From a virus (taxonomy: Duplodnaviria > Caudoviricetes), in the IMG/VR virus record IMGVR_UViG_3300030110_001023, positions 1-58,094 of that record: 58,094 nucleotides of DNA; one strand, 5' to 3'. The notes beneath the pieces are model-generated. The model saw nothing but the letters and a program-made list of their open reading frames with translations. It had not been told where the DNA came from and made no database searches. The translations under genes were made by a program, and so were the position numbers. Positions 1 to 58,094 of this stretch are shown here, one piece after another (positions within the stretch are counted from its first letter, which is position 1; every line of letters begins with the position of its first letter).

Positions 1-601
1 CCATGTTGCTGACCGCATTGTATGCGCGGTCAAAACATTCGGTGGTCACCTCCGATACACGCTCCTCATTCTTGCGTTGTATCTGAGCGGTGATCTTCTG
101 CTTGTCATCCTCAGACATGGCGACCCGAAAGTCTCCAGCCTCAGGGACAGGCCGCACCTCGATGTCTGCCCAGAACATGCCAGCGACATCAGCTTGGTGG
201 GGAAACAGACCTGCGTCATACAGATCACCCAACCTGTCAGGTGCCTGATCGACAAGCTCAGGGTACACCTTGACGAAGTCAGCGACTGCGAGGTCGAAGG
301 CGTCCTTCTTCTCACGCATGACCTCAGTGAAACGCTCGTAGCCGCTGGCCTTGATGATGTACCAGCCATCCTCAGACCACGGTGCGGTCTCAGCAGCGAA
401 CACATTGTAGAGAACACCCCGTGCGGTCTTGACCGCTTTGTATTTGGAGTGGGTGGTATCGATGGTGGTCTTGAGAACCTTGACCGCCTTGTTATTGGCG
501 TTCTTCTGATCCGCGACCTCAGCCGATACAGCCTTGTCAGTTTTGGAAAAACTGGGGCACTTGACCGACAGCCTTACAAGCAATGCTTTTTCTGAAAGCA
601 T
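1..601 (-). CDS. DUF3150-like phage protein, N-terminal part (runs off the left edge)
   Basis: Not in ORF track. ATG at 601 with RBS GAAAGGAG; frame MLSEKALLVRLSVKCPSFSKTDK...ETAPWSEDGWYII...FRVAMS...RAYNAVSNM is open to the edge. Family call is by resemblance and by its context beside AAA and VWA genes. Confidence 0.7.
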   Translation of the reverse strand, partial: MLSEKALLVRLSVKCPSFSKTDKAVSAEVADQKNANNKAVKVLKTTIDTTHSKYKAVKTARGVLYNVFAAETAPWSEDGWYIIKASGYERFTEVMREKKDAFDLAVADFVKVYPELVDQAPDRLGDLYDAGLFPHQADVAGMFWADIEVRPVPEAGDFRVAMSEDDKQKITAQIQRKNEERVSEVTTECFDRAYNAVSNM

Positions 602-630
602 GATAGCTCCTTTCGATGGTTGATATTTAC

Positions 631-646
631 GAGTCACCAGTGACTC
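631..646. promoter_or_regulatory. 16-bp palindromic operator-like site, copy 1 (GAGTCACCAGTGACTC)
   Basis: 7-bp inverted arms with a 2-bp spacer; intergenic, 30 bp upstream of ATG 601; five further copies elsewhere. Confidence 0.65.
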
Positions 647-662
647 AGGATGTGATGCATTC

Positions 663-703
663 GCATCTATCAGCACACCCGCTGTGATGTGCTGGTAGAT
701 GCG
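663..703 (-). other. long intergenic RNA hairpin (processing or attenuation element)
   Basis: Arms gcatctatcagcaca / tgtgctggtagatgc lie between the AAA gene and the DUF3150-like gene. Confidence 0.45.
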
Positions 704-730
704 GGGGCGTTAGCCCCCACACCGTAGGCG

Positions 731-1717
731 TTAGCCGATCTCCACATCGGCATTGTCTGCGCGGTACTCGCATACTGCGCGGGTCTCAGCCAGATCAGGC
801 TGACGGGACAGGATGTCCCGCACTAGGACGACACTGAACTCCCGCCCCAGTCGCTTGCCGTAGATCAGCGCAGCGCCAATGGTCTCTTCGGTAACCCGCT
901 TGGCGATGTTAGACACCAAGGCGATGGTCACGTCAGTCTCTGTCGGCACCTCGCAACCCTCTGGGTCATCGAAGACCTTAGAGACAGGGATCAGCCTGTC
1001 AAAGATGCGGAGGAAGCCAGCGAACTCTGCCGCACGTCCCTCGCCAATCACCCCAGAGAATGCTGGCAAGTAGTCTTTGCATTCCAAGTGGGGAAGCAGG
1101 GCCGACACCGTAGACCATGACCGTGCGGTGGGGCACACCTCAGCCTTGGGGTCGAACTCTTGGAGTGCATCAGGGCGGTGCCTGATGTATCCGACCACAC
1201 GGTGATCGATGCCCGACTGTCCAGCCCATGCCGCCCAGTCGTCAGTGTCAGCCTCCAGTGGCACCACCGTGAGACGGTCCCGCACATGGGTTGGCAGTGG
1301 CCGACAGCCAGCCTTGTCCTTGGAGCGGTTGCCTGTGGCGATCACCGCCCAGCCCTTGGGCAGCTTGTAGCCATGCAGCTCCCGCTCCAGCAAGAGCCGC
1401 GCAGCACCGTTGAGAACGCCCTCGTCACCTTGAGGTAACTCGTCAATGAGAAGGACACCGACATCCCCGTCACGATCTGCGCGGGGTAGCCAGTCCATTG
1501 GCTTGAAGGTGGTAAGTGACCCTGACACGTCAGGGATACCCGTCCAATCCTCCCGTGCCATCGTGGGCACTGGGGCATAGATCAGGTTACCTCCCAGATC
1601 GTCAGCGACCTGACGTGCTAGGGCAGTCTTGCCCAGACCGGGTTCGCCTTCGAGGTAGGGCACACGACCCGACTTGACGATGGCGTGAACGATGCGAAGT
1701 GCTTGAGAAAATTTCAT
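731..1717 (-). CDS. MoxR/dynein-related AAA+ ATPase
   Basis: Walker A GEPGLGKT, Walker B LLIDE, sensor ATGN, arginine finger DR, helix motif PTARSW. Confidence 0.88.
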   Translation of the reverse strand: MKFSQALRIVHAIVKSGRVPYLEGEPGLGKTALARQVADDLGGNLIYAPVPTMAREDWTGIPDVSGSLTTFKPMDWLPRADRDGDVGVLLIDELPQGDEGVLNGAARLLLERELHGYKLPKGWAVIATGNRSKDKAGCRPLPTHVRDRLTVVPLEADTDDWAAWAGQSGIDHRVVGYIRHRPDALQEFDPKAEVCPTARSWSTVSALLPHLECKDYLPAFSGVIGEGRAAEFAGFLRIFDRLIPVSKVFDDPEGCEVPTETDVTIALVSNIAKRVTEETIGAALIYGKRLGREFSVVLVRDILSRQPDLAETRAVCEYRADNADVEIG

Positions 1718-1720
1718 GAG

Positions 1721-1954
1721 CTAGGCTCCTTTCAAGGCTTGTTTGGTTTGGGAAACAGTTCCTCTGAAAATCATCAGAGCAACCTTGGCGACCACGATGG
1801 CCAGTGATCTGCGGGTGGGCAGACCACGATTAGCGAGTTCATCTTGAGCAACGCTGGCAATCTCCGTGATAGATGATTGCGAGTGTAACTCGAACTCGAA
1901 GTGAGGCTGCATGTCTGATGCAATCTCTTGGATAACTTGATCTGACACAAACAT
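1721..1954 (-). CDS. hypothetical protein (77 aa)
   Basis: ATG 1954 preceded by AAGGAGG; packed in the operon. Confidence 0.65.
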   Translation of the reverse strand: MFVSDQVIQEIASDMQPHFEFELHSQSSITEIASVAQDELANRGLPTRRSLAIVVAKVALMIFRGTVSQTKQALKGA

Positions 1955-2037
1955 TGTGTCCTCCTTTCGGGTTGGTTGAGATGATGGTGTAATTGACACC
2001 GTCGAGGGCACCCAGCGGGTGCCCTCTGCGTTGGCAA

Positions 2038-2226
2038 CTATCGACGTAGCCTCGCCATCTTATTGAGGTGACGCTGGCGTTCTTTGAAACGCTGCTCACG
2101 TCGCTTGTTTCTCCGACGAACGTGGGCGATGTACGGGTCAGGTTCGTAGGTGCTGTAGAATGCCAAGGCAGCGGTGAACACTGCCGCGACAACGAAGATT
2201 GAGCAAAATAAAATGACTGCGCTCAT
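2038..2226 (-). CDS. small membrane protein (N-terminal TM, basic tail)
   Basis: Hydrophobic N-terminus, RBS GAGGA, operon packing. Confidence 0.6.
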   Translation of the reverse strand: MSAVILFCSIFVVAAVFTAALAFYSTYEPDPYIAHVRRRNKRREQRFKERQRHLNKMARLRR

Positions 2227-2228
2227 GA

Positions 2229-2474
2229 TCAGTTCCTCTCGTTTTTGGGTGTGTACTTTTCCAAGTGCAACACGTTGTTAACGTACCATCTCTTGTGCCC
2301 ATGCTTGTGAACATGCAGAGAGTGCTTGCCCTGCCTTGGCGTGGCCCTTTTGTCAGCCGTGCCATCTTTTTTTCTAGGCTGGTACAGGTTGGTGACGACA
2401 GTCCAGCCAGAGCGGCGAGGGTGTGTCTCGCGGCTCTGGCCTACGCAAACGCGACCATATGGTGTATAATTCAT
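2229..2474 (-). CDS. hypothetical basic protein
   Basis: ATGA overlap with the stop of the upstream gene at 2471-2474. Confidence 0.55.
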   Translation of the reverse strand: MNYTPYGRVCVGQSRETHPRRSGWTVVTNLYQPRKKDGTADKRATPRQGKHSLHVHKHGHKRWYVNNVLHLEKYTPKNERN

Positions 2475-2734
2475 GATCCATGCCCCCTGCGTTTGAACAC
2501 CGATTGCCAATTGTTTTTGTCTAGCAGGTGGTCAGCCAGCAGCCCCATCAGGTCTGCCTTGCAGTCCTCCAAGGTGGCAGCATATGTCACCTCAAGGACG
2601 TGGCCGTCCGCTGTGACATAGCCCGCCCAGCGCAGGTCTTCGAAACCTTCGGCAGCCTCATGATCTGGGGCAGCGTTGTATTGCCGAAACTGCGGCTGCG
2701 TAACGTCCATCGACGTGAAATATTTTTTGTTCAT
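2471..2734 (-). CDS. hypothetical protein (87 aa)
   Basis: Start MNKKYF at 2734 with RBS GAAAGG, just downstream of the hammerhead cleavage site. Confidence 0.6.
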   Translation of the reverse strand: MNKKYFTSMDVTQPQFRQYNAAPDHEAAEGFEDLRWAGYVTADGHVLEVTYAATLEDCKADLMGLLADHLLDKNNWQSVFKRRGHGS

Positions 2735-2770
2735 GTTATGCCTTTCGGTTGATGTTGATATTGAGTGGTT

Positions 2771-2839
2771 ACCCAGAACGCTGCGCAGCGGTGCAGCGTT
2801 TTCGGCCCGTACCAATGGGCGCTCATCAGTGGGCTTGGT
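2771..2839 (-). ncRNA. type I hammerhead ribozyme
   Basis: Minus strand: ACCAA-GCCCA-CUGAUGA-GCGCCC(AUUGGUAC)GGGCC-GAAA-ACGCUGC(ACCGCUGC)GCAGCGU-UC^UGGGU. Full core, three stems, and loop II UUGGU complementary to the 5' ACCAA. Confidence 0.88.
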
Positions 2840-3026
2840 CTGCCTCGCATTCGGGGCAGATCGTGGGGGTCTCGAATGCCTCTGTGTAATACGCGCAGTC
2901 GTCGCAATCGGGGTCGATCTCAATGATCTCAACCTCCCCAGCTTCCTCCATGTGATCCATGAAGTTTTCAGGGGTAAGCTTGGACAGATCAACGTCAGCG
3001 GTAAGCGCATAAGTTTTGTATTTCAT
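2826..3026 (-). CDS. small acidic zinc-ribbon protein
   Basis: CDDC...CPEC; RBS GGAG; its TGA stop lies inside the ribozyme CUGAUGA. Confidence 0.65.
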   Translation of the reverse strand: MKYKTYALTADVDLSKLTPENFMDHMEEAGEVEIIEIDPDCDDCAYYTEAFETPTICPECEADQAH

Positions 3027-3043
3027 TTCAACTCCAATCGTAA

Positions 3044-3059
3044 AAGTTACCAGTGACTC
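3044..3059. promoter_or_regulatory. 16-bp palindromic site, copy 2 (AAGTTACCAGTGACTC)
   Basis: Matches consensus RAGTYAC-CA-GTRACTY; 18 bp upstream of ATG 3026. Confidence 0.6.
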
Positions 3060-3061
3060 AG

Positions 3062-3088
3062 AAAGTGTGCCGCCCCCGAAGGGGCGGC
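3062..3088 (-). terminator. GC-rich hairpin with UUCG tetraloop (terminator or attenuator)
   Basis: GCCGCCCC-UUCG-GGGGCGGC just after the stop at 3095; U tail is weak. Confidence 0.55.
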
Positions 3089-3094
3089 GTTGGA

Positions 3095-3706
3095 TTAGAC
3101 TGCCTGTTTGAGGACAGTCACGTTGTCGTCGTATCCGCTGCCGACCTTGGCGAGGTCAGCGGCGTTCATGACCAATTCCCAGACAGCGGTCTTGCCTTCG
3201 ACGGTATCGACATCGTGACCGTTTGCCTTGGCAAGCTTCTGGGCGAGGGCGACGATCTGCTCTTCGTCGCTCAATTCCTCCTTCGGGTTCAGGAAGGCGA
3301 CCAGCTTGTTGAAGCTGTTGATCTGCAACTCTTCGCAGCGTTGGTTGATCGTGTCGCGAAACTTTCCAGCGGTCAGGTTGTCGCTGTAGCCGCCGTCTCT
3401 TGCGACGTTGATGGTGCTGAGAAATTCAGGATGCTTGGCAAGCTTGAGGGCATTTTCTGCCAGCTTCTTGCCTTTGCCGCTGGCATTCTTCTGCCCCAGC
3501 ACATCGAAGCACACCGCATCGCGGAACTGGCCAGCCTTCTTGCTGCCCTTGCGGAAGTTTTGGCGAGCAGCTTCAACCGCCAGAATGCCGATCAAGGTGA
3601 ACTTGTCAGCCTCGACAAATTGGTTGGCGCGGAATTCAGAGATCTCAGCTTCTTTGCGTGAGATGTCGGCGGCAACGTGAGCAGCTTGTTTGATGATGTT
3701 TGTCAT
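3095..3706 (-). CDS. hypothetical early protein (203 aa), first gene of the early operon
   Basis: Start MTNIIKQ with RBS GAAGGGA; strong GC3 codon bias. Confidence 0.75.
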   Translation of the reverse strand: MTNIIKQAAHVAADISRKEAEISEFRANQFVEADKFTLIGILAVEAARQNFRKGSKKAGQFRDAVCFDVLGQKNASGKGKKLAENALKLAKHPEFLSTINVARDGGYSDNLTAGKFRDTINQRCEELQINSFNKLVAFLNPKEELSDEEQIVALAQKLAKANGHDVDTVEGKTAVWELVMNAADLAKVGSGYDDNVTVLKQAV

Positions 3707-3730
3707 GTGTGTGATCCCTTCGATCTGAAT

Positions 3731-3800
3731 GTGTTTCGACCATGCTTGGTCCAAGGGGCAGGATTGCCCTCATCAGGGGTGCAGCATCAGCACCCGACAC
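3731..3800 (-). ncRNA. type III hammerhead ribozyme with an extra hairpin inserted in the core
   Basis: GUGUC^-GGGUGC(UGAUGCU)GCACCC-CUGAUGA-[GGGCA(AUCC)UGCCC-CUUG]-GACCA(AGCA)UGGUC-GAAACAC. Loop I AUGCU is complementary to AGCAU at loop II. Confidence 0.78.
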
Positions 3801-4103
3801 TTGCGGGGTGGTCTCTCAGTCAGCAACCGTTCGTTGCCTCGCACGTCCAGCTTGCTATCGCTGGGGGTTCGCGGCGGCAGAGATGCCATCCCCGTGATCC
3901 CCGTTGCCAACGTCCTTTCATCGTTGTCGTGCAGCGGGGTCTCATTCTGGCGGGGCTGTCACACCTTACGCTCTTGTCCGTTTGCTAGGACACCAGCCTC
4001 ATTGCTGATGCGGTCCCTTCCCGGATCGCTGTGGTTCGCTTTGTTTCTGGCTAGCGTTGCCCAGGGGGTGGCCCCCGCTCGGTGACTGATGTGTGCCGCC
4101 GAG
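3796..4103 (-). ncRNA. putative ~300-nt structured non-coding RNA or leader
   Basis: No credible ORF; many hairpins and possible 5'/3' closing pairing; lies between a promoter and a hammerhead cleavage site. Confidence 0.55.
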
Positions 4104-4109
4104 GACCTA

Positions 4110-4138
4110 CGTATGGACCCACTCGGTGGGCTTGTCAA
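4110..4138 (-). promoter_or_regulatory. sigma70-type early promoter
   Basis: TTGACA-17 bp-CATACG on the minus strand; a -10 element lacking the last T is common in Alphaproteobacteria. Confidence 0.55.
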
Positions 4139-4410
4139 ACACAAATTGTCACATTATCGAAAGTTTTTTTTCGGTTTGAGGCTGACTGCGGGTTTCCAGT
4201 GGCCACCAAATCCCATTGATTTGTCAGGAGGTGAATTTAAGCTGTTTTTTGGACGTGTTTTTACATGCGCTGCGAATCGTCATTTTCGGGCGCTACTGCA
4301 AGAAAAACGAGTCGGTTTGTAATGTTTTCAATGACTTAATTTTTTTGGGGGTGTCGACCTGGTCGCACGCTGCGTGTCACCCCCGCCTGAAAAAAAAGGA
4401 GATTCGGACG

Positions 4411-4905
4411 ATGTCAGACAGTTTGAAAGTGGTGGGCGGCACCGACAGCGGCAAGCAGTCGGGCAAGGGGCGGCGACCACTGACCAGCAAGCAGCAAGCA
4501 TTCGCTGATGGCGTGGTCTCAGGTCTCAGTCAGAGCGAGGCCTACCGGCGCGCTTATTCGGCGGCTGGCATGAAAGCATCAGCCGTCCATACCGAGAGTA
4601 GTTCATTGGCTGGCCACCCTGAGGTTGCCCGAAGGATCGCGGCGGGATTAGCGGAGAAGGAACGGGCAGCACAGCGCAGCGGCCTCTCCCGAAGGGCAAT
4701 GGTTCTTGAGAGGCTGGAGCATGAGGCCATGAACGCAGAGGCTGATGCGGCCCGTATCAGGGCACTCGAATTGCTGGGGAAACATGAGCGGCTATTTGTG
4801 GACGTGGTAGAGAATCAGGAAGACACTCGGACGGCTGATGACCTGCGCGAAGAACTGGCGCAGCGGCTGGCTGGTCTGACCGCTCGAGTCACTGGTGACT
4901 CGTAG
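4411..4905 (+). CDS. terS: terminase small subunit
   Basis: LTSKQQAFADGVVSGLSQSEAYRRAY HTH and RIRALELLGKH motif; ATG 4411 with RBS AAGGAG. Confidence 0.85.
   Translation: MSDSLKVVGGTDSGKQSGKGRRPLTSKQQAFADGVVSGLSQSEAYRRAYSAAGMKASAVHTESSSLAGHPEVARRIAAGLAEKERAAQRSGLSRRAMVLERLEHEAMNAEADAARIRALELLGKHERLFVDVVENQEDTRTADDLREELAQRLAGLTARVTGDS
4886..4901. promoter_or_regulatory. 16-bp palindromic site, copy 3 (GAGTCACTGGTGACTC)
   Basis: Exact reverse complement of copy 1 (match extends to 19 bp); overlaps the last codons of terS. Confidence 0.6.
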
Positions 4906-5160
4906 CAGCACGATGCGCTGCGCGGCGGGCGGCGGGATGGCAGTCAGGCAAAAAGACCCCGCCCCTAAACGGCCAACTGTTTCTGGCGTCAGAAGCCGAG
5001 GGGCCACCCCCTGTGCTGCGACACAGCGCGTGTCAGGCACGCATGTATGCTGTTTCACTCAAACGATTAGCTGATTTTAATAGACCCCCCCTATTACTTC
5101 TTTTTCCCAATGGGATGAAGTGTGCCCCCACCCCTATAAAACAATCTGACATGATGTAGG

Positions 5161-55946: not shown

Positions 55947-56102
55947 GTAAGTAAATGGGCGGCATCCACATCAGTGAACACCGCCCATGCAAATCGCGAG
56001 AATCGAAAGGAACCCGCACCGTAAACCACAATGCGAGTAGAAAAGCTCCTCCATTTGCTGACGGGGTTATAATCGGGGCACTCGCCGTCTAATCCCCATC
56101 AG

Positions 56103-56426
56103 CTAGGGACCGACGTACCGCCAGACCTTGATCTCTCTACTGTGATTAGTCTTTCGCTGAGAGTTTACACGCTCACCCGTGAACTCCCAGTCCTTGCCCC
56201 TGAAGATAGAGCCAGCAGCATTGCCCAAGCTATCGGTGATACCCTCTCTGGCAAACGCCCTGCTTACATCATCAGCAGTCACGGTGCGGCTGTCTCGCAG
56301 CATGGCGATCTGCTTTGCCACATGCCTTGCGTGGGTCAGCAGGTCATGCTTGCTGGCAGCAGCAGATGCCATGCCCTCTTCTTTGAGGCGCTGTGCCTCA
56401 GCTAGATCAAACAAGTCCATTGTCAT
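56103..56426 (-). CDS. hypothetical phage protein
   Basis: K.EGM..A...VTADDV...NAAGSIF...TG..V.S.R..NH...I.VW. Confidence 0.68.
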   Translation of the reverse strand: MTMDLFDLAEAQRLKEEGMASAAASKHDLLTHARHVAKQIAMLRDSRTVTADDVSRAFAREGITDSLGNAAGSIFRGKDWEFTGERVNSQRKTNHSREIKVWRYVGP

Positions 56427-56566
56427 CCCTTCCATGCTATGATGCCTTGCTCAACGCTGGGTGCGAAGTGAAGCAGCCCAACGGTGATTGTAGTCCACAA
56501 AAGAATAGCGATGAAGGAGAGAGCGATCTCTCTCCAATCACGCTTGGCCCAGTCATGTTGTCTCAT
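56423..56566 (-). CDS. 47-aa membrane peptide
   Basis: RBS GGAGG; one TM segment; ATGA overlap; not in ORF track. Confidence 0.5.
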   Translation of the reverse strand: MRQHDWAKRDWREIALSFIAILLWTTITVGLLHFAPSVEQGIIAWKG

Positions 56567-56579
56567 CTGTCACCTCCAA

Positions 56580-57830
56580 TCAGGCAGCGACTTGGACAAC
56601 TGTTGCCCAAGTCGCGTCCTCTTCGATTGCATCCAACCATCTCTGGTCCCGCACACATGCTGCAAGCAGCGTCGGCAGTGCTGGCTCAGGGATGTCTTTA
56701 TAGATATCCTCCATGTCAGAGAAGATGATGATAGCATCAACGTCGAGTTGTTGCTCATCGACATACTCCAGAGCCTTGCAGGTGTTTGTCCCACCGTAGT
56801 AGCGGGTGCGGTCAATCTCATCACCGGGGTCAACGACCTGATGCTCCTTGACCGTGTGGGTGAACTTGACCACATGGCTGGTGATGTCGAACTCTGAGGT
56901 GATCGACTGCAACTCCTCGCAGAACTGGGCGAACATCTCGTCATCGACTGATGATGACACGTCAATCAGAACTGCAATCTCACCGCCCACGTCACGGCGG
57001 CGGGTAGGCAGCGGCACACCCACCGCACGGGACCGACGACCAAGGCGCTGGTAGGACGTGCCAGACGGGCGACCATCCAGCAAGAACCTGCGAAGCACAC
57101 CCCGCCAGTCAACGACTGGCTTGCGTAGCAGCGTGATGTGCTGCTTGAAGGGGCTGTCTTCCTTGCCAGCCTCGCCGCTGATCATGGCGGCATTGAGGAC
57201 GATCTCAGTCCACTTGTCCTCCTCCTCCTTGATCTCTGAGGCGGTGAGACCAGAGCCGTCATCAGATGTGCCATCGATCACCACCCCGTGGCCCTGCATG
57301 TCCACTGGCTGGTCCTTGCCCGACTGGGCAGGGGCATCCCCAGAGCCGCTGTTTTCTTGGGGTTGATCGTCACCACCCTCAGCATCACCCTGAGAGTCAC
57401 CCTCCGATTCGCCAGTACCCTCTGGCTCTGGCTGGTCATCGAACAATTTGCGGTAGATATCTTCCGCTGACTGACCGCGATATGCCAAGTCGATCAGGCC
57501 GTCCTCAGGTAGGGAGAACCCAGCATCAACTAGGATGCTGTTGATGGCGTAGTCAGCAGCCGTGTTCCAGTTATTGGGATCACGCTGCCCCCTGCGAAGA
57601 TGGTGCTTAAAGATCACATGGCACACCTCATGAGCGAGGACGCCCTTGAGGTGAGCGTTAGTGTGGCCATCCACAAACGCAGGGTTGAACCAGATAGAGG
57701 AACCATCTGTCGCCATCGTGTCAAACTGATCTGACTCGATCAGGTTGAGCCGCATGGCGATGTTGCCGAAGAACGGATTGTCCAGCAAAAGCTGCGTCCG
57801 TGCTGTCACGATCTTGTGTTGTGCTGACAT
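56580..57830 (-). CDS. DUF2201-type metallopeptidase + VWA domain protein
   Basis: TMATDG, LAHEVCH (HExxH), WN.AADYAIN, acidic linker, MIDAS DVSSS, GGT, FSD. Confidence 0.88.
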   Translation of the reverse strand: MSAQHKIVTARTQLLLDNPFFGNIAMRLNLIESDQFDTMATDGSSIWFNPAFVDGHTNAHLKGVLAHEVCHVIFKHHLRRGQRDPNNWNTAADYAINSILVDAGFSLPEDGLIDLAYRGQSAEDIYRKLFDDQPEPEGTGESEGDSQGDAEGGDDQPQENSGSGDAPAQSGKDQPVDMQGHGVVIDGTSDDGSGLTASEIKEEEDKWTEIVLNAAMISGEAGKEDSPFKQHITLLRKPVVDWRGVLRRFLLDGRPSGTSYQRLGRRSRAVGVPLPTRRRDVGGEIAVLIDVSSSVDDEMFAQFCEELQSITSEFDITSHVVKFTHTVKEHQVVDPGDEIDRTRYYGGTNTCKALEYVDEQQLDVDAIIIFSDMEDIYKDIPEPALPTLLAACVRDQRWLDAIEEDATWATVVQVAA

Positions 57831-57841
57831 GTCAATACCTC

Positions 57842-58094
57842 CTACTGACCAATAAAGTCATCGATTTGGTTCATGATCTCGCGGGCATCTGCCGCGACTT
57901 CCTGACGCTTGGCACCATCCTCCTTGAGGGTGGCAGCATCAGTCTCAGTGAGACGCTGGCCGATCTCGCGGGCCAACTGCTCAAGGCGAGGGTCATCACC
58001 CACGTTGAGGGACGGCAGCAACTCTGCGATGTCTCGCACGTTGCCGACCAAACTGTCGTAAAGCTTGGCACCCTTCTTGTCGGGATCGTATGCC
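57842..58094 (-). CDS. DUF3150-like protein, C-terminal part (continuation of 1-601)
   Basis: Frame open from the right edge: AYDPDKKGAKLYDSLVGNVRDIAELLPSLNVGDDPRL...REIMNQIDDFIGQ*. Confidence 0.7.
   Translation of the reverse strand, partial: AYDPDKKGAKLYDSLVGNVRDIAELLPSLNVGDDPRLEQLAREIGQRLTETDAATLKEDGAKRQEVAADAREIMNQIDDFIGQ

Follow-up and report, generated by a model that had tools for sequence, protein, structure and literature searches.

A predicted type III hammerhead ribozyme with an extra stem-loop beside its catalytic core in a phage 5' untranslated region

The DNA analysed here (hereafter the window) is the complete virus record IMGVR_UViG_3300030110_001023 of IMG/VR (Duplodnaviria; Caudoviricetes), 58,094 base pairs (bp) in length. 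At positions 3800..3731 of its minus strand lies an element that, judged by comparison with related sequences, is a genuine type III hammerhead in which an extra stem-loop separates the core strand CUGAUGA from stem II. We think it likely that this element is a functional, self-cleaving hammerhead in the 5' untranslated region (UTR) of a leftward operon of this 58-kb marine phage genome.

Sequence and fold of the element at 3800..3731

Read directly on the minus strand, the element consists of GUGUC, stem I with its loop (GGGUGC-UGAUGCU-GCACCC), CUGAUGA, an insert of 18 nucleotides (nt) made up of a hairpin and a linker (GGGCA-AUCC-UGCCC and CUUG), stem II with its loop (GACCA-AGCA-UGGUC) and GAAAC-AC. 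The 5' strand of stem III, GUGU (3797..3800), pairs with ACAC at 3734-3731, U3797 being position 16.1. The cleavage-site nucleotide C17 is C3796, the last letter of the directly read GUC triplet, and the bond to be cut joins 3796 and 3795. Stem I and heptaloop I occupy 3777..3795, with GGGUGC (3795-3790) pairing over 6 bp with GCACCC (3782-3777) around the loop UGAUGCU (3789-3783). The core strand CUGAUGA (C3-A9, 3770..3776) aligns to the Hammerhead_3 consensus, and the inserted hairpin of 5 bp (3756..3769) begins immediately 3' of A9. The 4-nt linker CUUG (3752..3755) joins this hairpin to stem II, so the whole insert (3769-3752) separates A9 (3770) from G10.1 (3751). Stem II (3738..3751) is formed by the pairing of 3751-3747 with 3742-3738 around tetraloop II (AGCA, 3746-3743), with G10.1-C11.1 as its closing pair. 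The element ends at 3731..3737 with the core GAAA (G12-A15.1, 3737-3734) and the 3' strand of stem III (A3734 and CAC at 3733-3731). An earlier sequence-only reading had given the same coordinates throughout, including the cut at 3796/3795, the 6-bp stem I, CUGAUGA and the 18-nt insert.

The type III core is complete: C3-A9, G12 A13 A14, the pair A15.1-U16.1 (A3734-U3797) and a non-G nucleotide at position 17 (C3796) are present, and three helices surround the core, of which I and II are closed by loops and III is open. With respect to the contiguity of CUGAnGA with the stems, where at most 1-2 nt are inserted, the element is a variant, since 18 nt are found there. The minimum-free-energy fold contains all four helices, at -29.5 kcal/mol. 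A local search with Rfam Hammerhead_3 (RF00008) gave a full-length alignment (25.4 bits, E 0.0025) that puts 30 nt where the model has 14. At the gathering score Rfam returned no match across the whole window, as had been anticipated in the sequence-only reading, which expected standard descriptors to miss this layout. A covariance model built from nine insert-less relatives only gave the window element 50.4 bits (E ~1e-14). A chance match for the window element is ruled out by the Rfam alignment, the unforced triplet and stems, the covariation described below and this covariance-model score.

The identity of stem II comes from orthologous loci. Homologues of the downstream gene on two IMG/VR contigs, L001 and L002 (54% and 53% amino acid identity), are preceded, at the same distance before the start codon, by GUGUC, CGGUGC-UGAUGCU-GCACCG, CUGAUGA, U, GAUCC-AGCA-GGAUC and GAAAC. 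Both loops are identical to those in the window, stems I and II differ from it by compensatory changes, and a single U stands at the place of the window's 18 nt. Because the two orthologues keep only the AGCA hairpin, this hairpin is identified as stem II and the 18 nt as an insertion between A9 and G10.1; the earlier proposal that GACCA/UGGUC is the true stem II, with an extra stem-loop before it, is thus supported by homology. One extra nucleotide at the site is common in the absence of a long insert, as 12 of the 22 insert-less relatives have exactly one U, A or G there.

Covariation was strong in the alignment of the nine canonical relatives. Across its 15 pairs, 98.5% of the cells are paired and 12 pairs show changes on both sides; the covariation score was reached by none of 500 shuffles, and slid controls were only 35-45% paired. 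All six stem I pairs change on both sides in this set, and four of the five stem II pairs covary. The closing pair G3751-C3738 is invariant both here (9/9) and in the alignment of the window's own insert class (6/6).

The sequence-only reading had further proposed that AUGCU in loop I pairs with AGCAU at loop II, and had used this pairing as an argument for stem II. The two strings are indeed complementary in the window, but the fifth pair takes the U of the A-U pair that closes stem II on its loop, and the 5-bp pairing is not conserved; what is conserved is at most GCU/AGC. Loop I in relatives follows U-G-N-N-(G/A)-C-U (UGACGCU, UGAAGCU, UGUUGCU, UGGCGCU, UGAUACU) with positions 3 and 4 varying freely, and loop II remains AGCA, or ends (A/G)GC(N)A when left free. 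Covariant loops occur in L021 (UGAAGCC with GGCA), and one lineage breaks one of the pairs (UGAUACU with AGCA). As an argument for stem II the loop pairing is therefore weaker than claimed, but the identity of stem II stands on the orthologues. The classical type III loop motif is UNmYN in loop 1 and RNnA in loop 2, as in sTRSV (UGUGCUU/GUGA; accessible part of Dufour et al. 2009, PMC2632901). The window loops suit both this motif and a 3-bp GCU/AGC pairing, a comparison limited by the fact that the loops were fixed in several of the search patterns.

Insert classes across the family and competing readings

Relatives of the element were collected by pattern scans. Pattern 1, in which only CUGAUGA, GAAAC and the two loops were fixed and the insertion site could hold 0-30 nt, gave 19 stretches on viral contigs; pattern 2 allowed 5-35 nt at the site and gave 25 stretches on metagenome contigs. 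The patterns left the stems and the cleavage triplet free, and family counts, being matches listed by pattern-bound scans, are lower bounds. Among 36 unique pattern matches, a GUH triplet (GUC or GUA) is present in 35, all six stem I pairs form in all 36, and all five stem II pairs form in 33. The census comprises 56 unique type III family members, 22 with 0-1 nt at the site and 34 with 14-30 nt; the insert-bearing share (34/56) is biased, as several scans asked for inserts. With pattern 1, the only scan open to sequences with and without an insert, a long insert was present in 3 of 15 unique sequences.

Several candidates were rejected or set aside. L023 is a chance match, having no GUH triplet and only two of five stem II pairs, and so are L052 and L060, in which stem I is unpaired, and L073, L075, L076 and L080, in which only the core and hairpin string occurs, without GAAAC or stems. 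A loose class-C pattern gave 120 matches, of which 5 of the 16 that bear stem I, and the other 104, were dropped. L048 and L049, from a genome scan, were excluded as they gave no covariance-model match at E <= 0.1. L037, with a 33-nt insert and an element cut by the contig end, was kept out of the census. In L081, which possibly has three hairpins, no convincing stem III or cleavage triplet was found.

By sequence, the inserts sort into five or more unrelated classes. One is GCC-GNRA-GGC with a 4-nt linker (14 nt) and another GCCC-NNNN-GGGC with a linker (16-17 nt). The window's class comprises GNGCA-AUYY-UGCNC-CUUG and GCCGCR-NGG-UGCGGC-CUYG (18-19 nt), and two further classes consist of two adjoining, linker-free hairpins of 24-25 nt or 30 nt in all, the uncounted 33 nt of L037 belonging with the latter. 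Nearly all inserts (33/34) are one or two hairpins that begin at the first nucleotide after A9; the insert of L043 begins at the second. For 20 of 27 unique inserts, 95% or more of the shuffled versions are less stable than the insert itself, and for the window insert only 5 of 500 shuffles fold as well. The linker of single-hairpin relatives is mostly C-N-N-G (CUUG, CUCG, CACG, CCUG, UUCG, CUAG, CAAG, CCCG). A pairing of the linker CUUG with CAAG upstream of stem III, present in the window and L041, was rejected, as it is absent in L028, L024 and L039.

The inserted hairpin itself covaries. In the window class (six sequences) 95% of the cells are paired, and the unpaired 5% reflect the alignment register of two 19-nt inserts. 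At the second pair of this hairpin the window has G-C, L041 has A-U, and both L028 and L024 have C-G. Stem III is 100% paired in the same class, with one both-sided change, two stem I pairs covary, and so do two of the five stem II pairs. In a two-hairpin class, UGGC/GCCA alternates with CAGC/GCUG. Stem I also varies in a compensatory manner within one insert class (GGGUGC, CGGUGC, UACGCC, UGCGCC, CGCCCC), as does stem II. Because both stems differ compensatorily within a single class, selection on the hammerhead fold persisted after the insert was gained. When GUC and GAAAC were both left free in a scan, 11 real members of the window class were recovered, and the two are intact in all 11.

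Close relatives differ in whether they carry the module. Three protein-anchored loci found without any RNA pattern, L069-L071, have a 19-nt insert, and L068, which is the L001 locus and has a nearly identical 3' flank, carries 1 nt at the site, which argues that the module is gained or lost between close relatives. The inserted layout also reaches beyond the type III family with UGAUGCU and AGCA loops, because it is present in a type I hammerhead, L082. This element, at about 4830-4910 on the minus strand of its locus and upstream of a gene with a Shine-Dalgarno sequence, reads CUGAUGA, GCC-GAAA-GGC, AACA, GGCG-CGAAA-CGCC, GAAA, a closed stem III, GUC and stem I CUGCU/AGCAG. We also observed several hammerheads of this family close together on single contigs of related phages: L015 and L074 are about 680 nt apart on the same IMG/VR contig, L003 has two, and L021 and L064 have three each. 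On one contig with clustered family hammerheads, both copies bear a 14-nt insert.

The favoured arrangement, as judged from these sequences, has the AGCA hairpin (3751-3738) as stem II and the 18-nt module bulging between A9 and G10.1. A module in the A9-G10.1 phosphodiester would create a three-way junction where it has a single hairpin and a perfect four-way junction where it has two, and in three dimensions the inserted hairpin would probably point outward from the core. Alternatively, the hairpin right after CUGAUGA (3769-3756) could be stem II, with the linker and the AGCA hairpin inserted between C11.1 and G12, or G3769-C3738 could be the 10.1-11.1 pair that closes a bifurcated, Y-shaped stem II; the A9-G10.1 step would be canonical either way. 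We regard this as unlikely, although a hairpin of the class A form GCC-GARA-GGC is the entire stem II of three ordinary hammerheads (L077, L078, L079), with GAAAC directly after it. The single-hairpin classes have G after A9 and C before G12, so that a G-C pair is possible, and the Rfam model aligns the element in this manner, with 30 nt as stem II content. Natural stems II of one or two pairs are also reported in the accessible text of Perreault et al. 2011 (PMC3088659). However, the AGCA hairpin, unchanged in loop and length, is all that the insert-less orthologues retain of the two. This hairpin has a fixed geometry (5 bp with a 4-nt loop, or 4 bp with a 6-nt loop) and is closed by G-C, whereas the first hairpin varies from 3 to 7 bp, as expected if no docking on loop I is involved. 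Moreover, the inserts of the two-hairpin classes begin with C (CCGC..., CCCA...): their first-to-last pair would be C-C, because of which they cannot form the bifurcated stem, and taking their first hairpin as stem II would give C10.1-G11.1.

In phages A9-G10.1, which adjoins the catalytic metal site, could also be a natural expansion port, into which folded modules of one or two hairpins were inserted repeatedly and independently. The core would become a four- or five-way junction with cleavage kept, and in at least some lineages cleavage would be conditional, making the hammerhead a natural allosteric operon gate. We consider this full proposal rather unlikely.

Quite improbable, in our estimate, is that the insert of the window element makes cleavage conditional, slowed or switched by the folding of its hairpin or by a bound protein or RNA, so that the hammerhead would be a regulated operon gate, along the lines of the suggestion in the sequence-only reading that the insert tunes cleavage or is bound by a protein. 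The insert does lie at the most sensitive junction of the core, its hairpin is maintained via compensatory changes, and, as described above, close relatives differ in its presence. GNRA tetraloops commonly make tertiary contacts, and two insert classes carry them (GAAA, GAGA, GCAA), but the window loop AUCC is not GNRA. Furthermore, the five or more insert classes share no sequence and differ in hairpin number, with no common ligand or protein site visible; because these classes are unrelated, one shared ligand or protein is argued against. No neighbouring gene was consistently linked to the insert-bearing forms, in a comparison that did not extend to a systematic examination. That the element is a decayed, catalytically dead relic, its core disrupted by the insertion, could be argued from the strong loss of activity seen with other core insertions (accessible text of Perreault et al. 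2011, PMC3088659), but is very improbable, as in 34 unique insert-bearing sequences a GUH triplet is kept and compensatory changes leave the stems fully paired, GUC and GAAAC are intact in the 11 members found without imposing either, and the place before the ribosome-binding site is kept.

Gene context and proposed function

The family has a preferred position in front of genes. A Shine-Dalgarno sequence and a start codon lie at most 90 nt downstream in 47 of the 56 unique members, the median distance from GAAA being 24 nt. In the window, a Shine-Dalgarno-like AAGGGA (3720-3715) and an ATG (3706-3704) follow on the minus strand (3704..3720), the ATG being 27 nt after GAAA. The first gene after the ribozyme, gene 1 (3095..3706, minus strand), encodes a protein of 203 amino acids without a Pfam or PHROG match; 37 relatives of this protein were found, and the few named ones are called hypothetical. 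Gene 2 (2826..3026, minus strand) encodes 66 amino acids with two CxxC pairs, and its stop codon is the UGA within the CUGAUGA of a second hammerhead. This type I candidate (2771..2845, minus strand; UUC triplet, cut at 2776/2775) ends the two-gene block. Read from 2845 to 2771, it has CUGAUGA, a stem II with a bulged C, GAAA and a closed 8-bp stem III, and its model match is weak (RAGATH-1-hammerhead, 17.5 bits, E = 1). A type I hammerhead also occupies the matching site in L001 (about 4040-4110), and its stems II and III are different and still complementary. Two hammerheads on the same strand, at 3800..3731 and, with weak model support, at 2845..2771, thus bracket the genes at 3706..3095 and 3026..2826, and the arrangement in L001 is alike.

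The hammerhead mechanism yields a leader with a 2',3'-cyclic phosphate end and an mRNA with a 5'-OH, which is predicted here to be on G3795. In the nascent RNA the ribozyme would cut after C3796, and the leader would dissociate from the 4-bp stem III. The mRNA would then start with a 5'-OH and a compact ribozyme fold that ends about 15 nt before the ribosome-binding site, the new end lying about 90 nt before the ATG. If the type I hammerhead at 2845..2771 cut as well, the product would be a two-gene mRNA of 1,020 nt (3795..2776). The ends, stability and translation of the mRNA would become independent of the variable upstream leader, as expected from the hammerhead mechanism; the leader is not conserved between L068, L069 and the window, and relatives cannot be aligned there. 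The element would thus probably serve to trim off the leader, about 90 nt ahead of the start codon, and, jointly with the second hammerhead, to release the two-gene mRNA. Lying about 24 nt ahead of start codons, the family hints at a natural role of phage hammerheads as insulators or stabilisers in the 5' UTR, which touches on the long-standing question of the role of hammerheads in bacteria and phages.

Several points weigh against a functional ribozyme at this place. The z-score of the folding energy is only -1.8, and because 10 of 200 shuffles fold equally well, folding energy by itself is weak evidence. The Hammerhead_3 score of 25.4 bits is far from the RF00008 gathering threshold of 48.5; since the canonical phage relatives fall below it too, at just 31.3-32.9 bits (2 matches at E <= 0.01 in nine loci), the Rfam threshold is uninformative in this phage group. 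Conservation of CUGAUGA and GAAAC in the family is largely by construction, as both were fixed in most patterns. A consensus scan of 2600-4400 found no sigma-70 promoter, and the only pointers to transcription of the minus strand are the direction of the genes and a TTGACA at 4138-4133 whose -10 is poor. In hammerheads a divalent metal binds at the A9 phosphate and G10.1, and a big insertion there could make catalysis slow or prevent it. Strong losses of activity from other core insertions (A6a; 2a/2b) are described in the accessible text of Perreault et al. 2011 (PMC3088659).

Other features of the locus were noted. Between TTGACA and the ribozyme, about 340 nt (3801-4138, minus strand) are without a credible open reading frame; L001 has a good promoter (TTGACG-17-TATAAT-like) only about 110 nt upstream of its hammerhead. 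Just after the gene 1 stop, at 3069-3088 on the minus strand, there is an 8-bp G+C-rich hairpin with a UUCG loop and no clear U tract, and L001 has a similar hairpin at the matching place (about 3652-3673). The hairpin at 3069-3088 might stabilise the mRNA, serve as a processing site or act as a weak terminator that separates genes 1 and 2. The ribozyme is flanked on its right by the small terminase subunit (4216-4905, plus strand), a Mom-like gene and a helix-turn-helix regulator; the minus-strand genes on its left include an AAA ATPase and several of unassigned function. The plus-strand structural block is long, with about 44-47% G+C. The minus-strand module, which looks early (1-4000 and 56000-58094), contains both hammerheads and has about 55-57% G+C, compared with 42-49% elsewhere, suggesting a mosaic origin. 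A blastn search of 3000-4300 against an annotated phage collection gave no match.

Comparison with known hammerheads

The element shares most of its features with RF00008 type III hammerheads of the sTRSV/CChMVd kind, as these are described in the accessible part of Dufour et al. 2009 (PMC2632901): the core CUGAUGA...GAAA, the A15.1-U16.1 pair, GUC, capped stems I and II and an open stem III are the same, UGAUGCU suits UNmYN, and AGCA suits RNnA. It differs in having 18 nt (14-30 nt in relatives, 33 nt in L037) between A9 and G10.1, and in being DNA-encoded in a phage 5' UTR rather than part of a rolling-circle RNA replicon. De la Pena and Flores reportedly described in 2001 one extra nucleotide between A9 and G10.1 in the CChMVd (+) viroid hammerhead. 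The insertion site would be the same, with one nucleotide there and a folded module of 14-30 nt here.

In prophages, hammerheads flank single genes or short blocks, and polycistronic transcripts of about 2 kb are processed in vitro (accessible text of Perreault et al. 2011, PMC3088659). The phage context, two hammerheads bracketing a short gene block and the proposed processing of the transcript are common to those pairs and to the window. The core variants listed in that accessible text include A6a, U13a, 2a/2b and U10.1-U11.1, among others, and no long insertion after A9 is reported there (PMC3088659). Known hammerhead alignments have no insertion longer than 1-2 nt next to CUGAnGA, according to the accessible part of Eckert et al. 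2023 (PMC10085705). Full-text searches of open-access papers turned up no account of a long stretch inserted between CUGAnGA and stem II, though the supplementary alignments and figures of Perreault et al. 2011 and Eckert et al. 2023 could hold unremarked cases, and the word 'insertion' does not occur in a 2017 hammerhead review. Within the open-access literature searched, the long folded insertion at A9-G10.1 therefore makes the element a new hammerhead variant.

The non-circularly permuted types SGC, CSG and GCS (accessible part of Eckert et al. 2023, PMC10085705) are, like the window family, natural departures from the known layout that were found by comparative genomics. They rearrange the order of the blocks and keep CUGAnGA contiguous with the stems, whereas the window family breaks this contiguity. 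The element therefore contradicts the working rule that CUGAnGA is always contiguous with the stems, which was used in 2023 to enumerate the permutations. Counts of phage hammerheads and maps of mRNA processing are probably incomplete, because standard models under-score or miss such elements. A structured insertion beside the A9/G10.1 metal site is also a natural experiment on what the active site tolerates and, if the ribozyme is active, the insertion site would be a new attachment point for engineered aptamer-ribozyme switches. With regard to function, the nearest comparison may be RiboJ, which Lou and colleagues are said to have derived from sTRSV in 2012 as an engineered insulator that sits just upstream of a ribosome-binding site and removes the variable leader. 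The likeness would be one of functional analogy only, between RiboJ, which is engineered, and the element in the window, which is natural.
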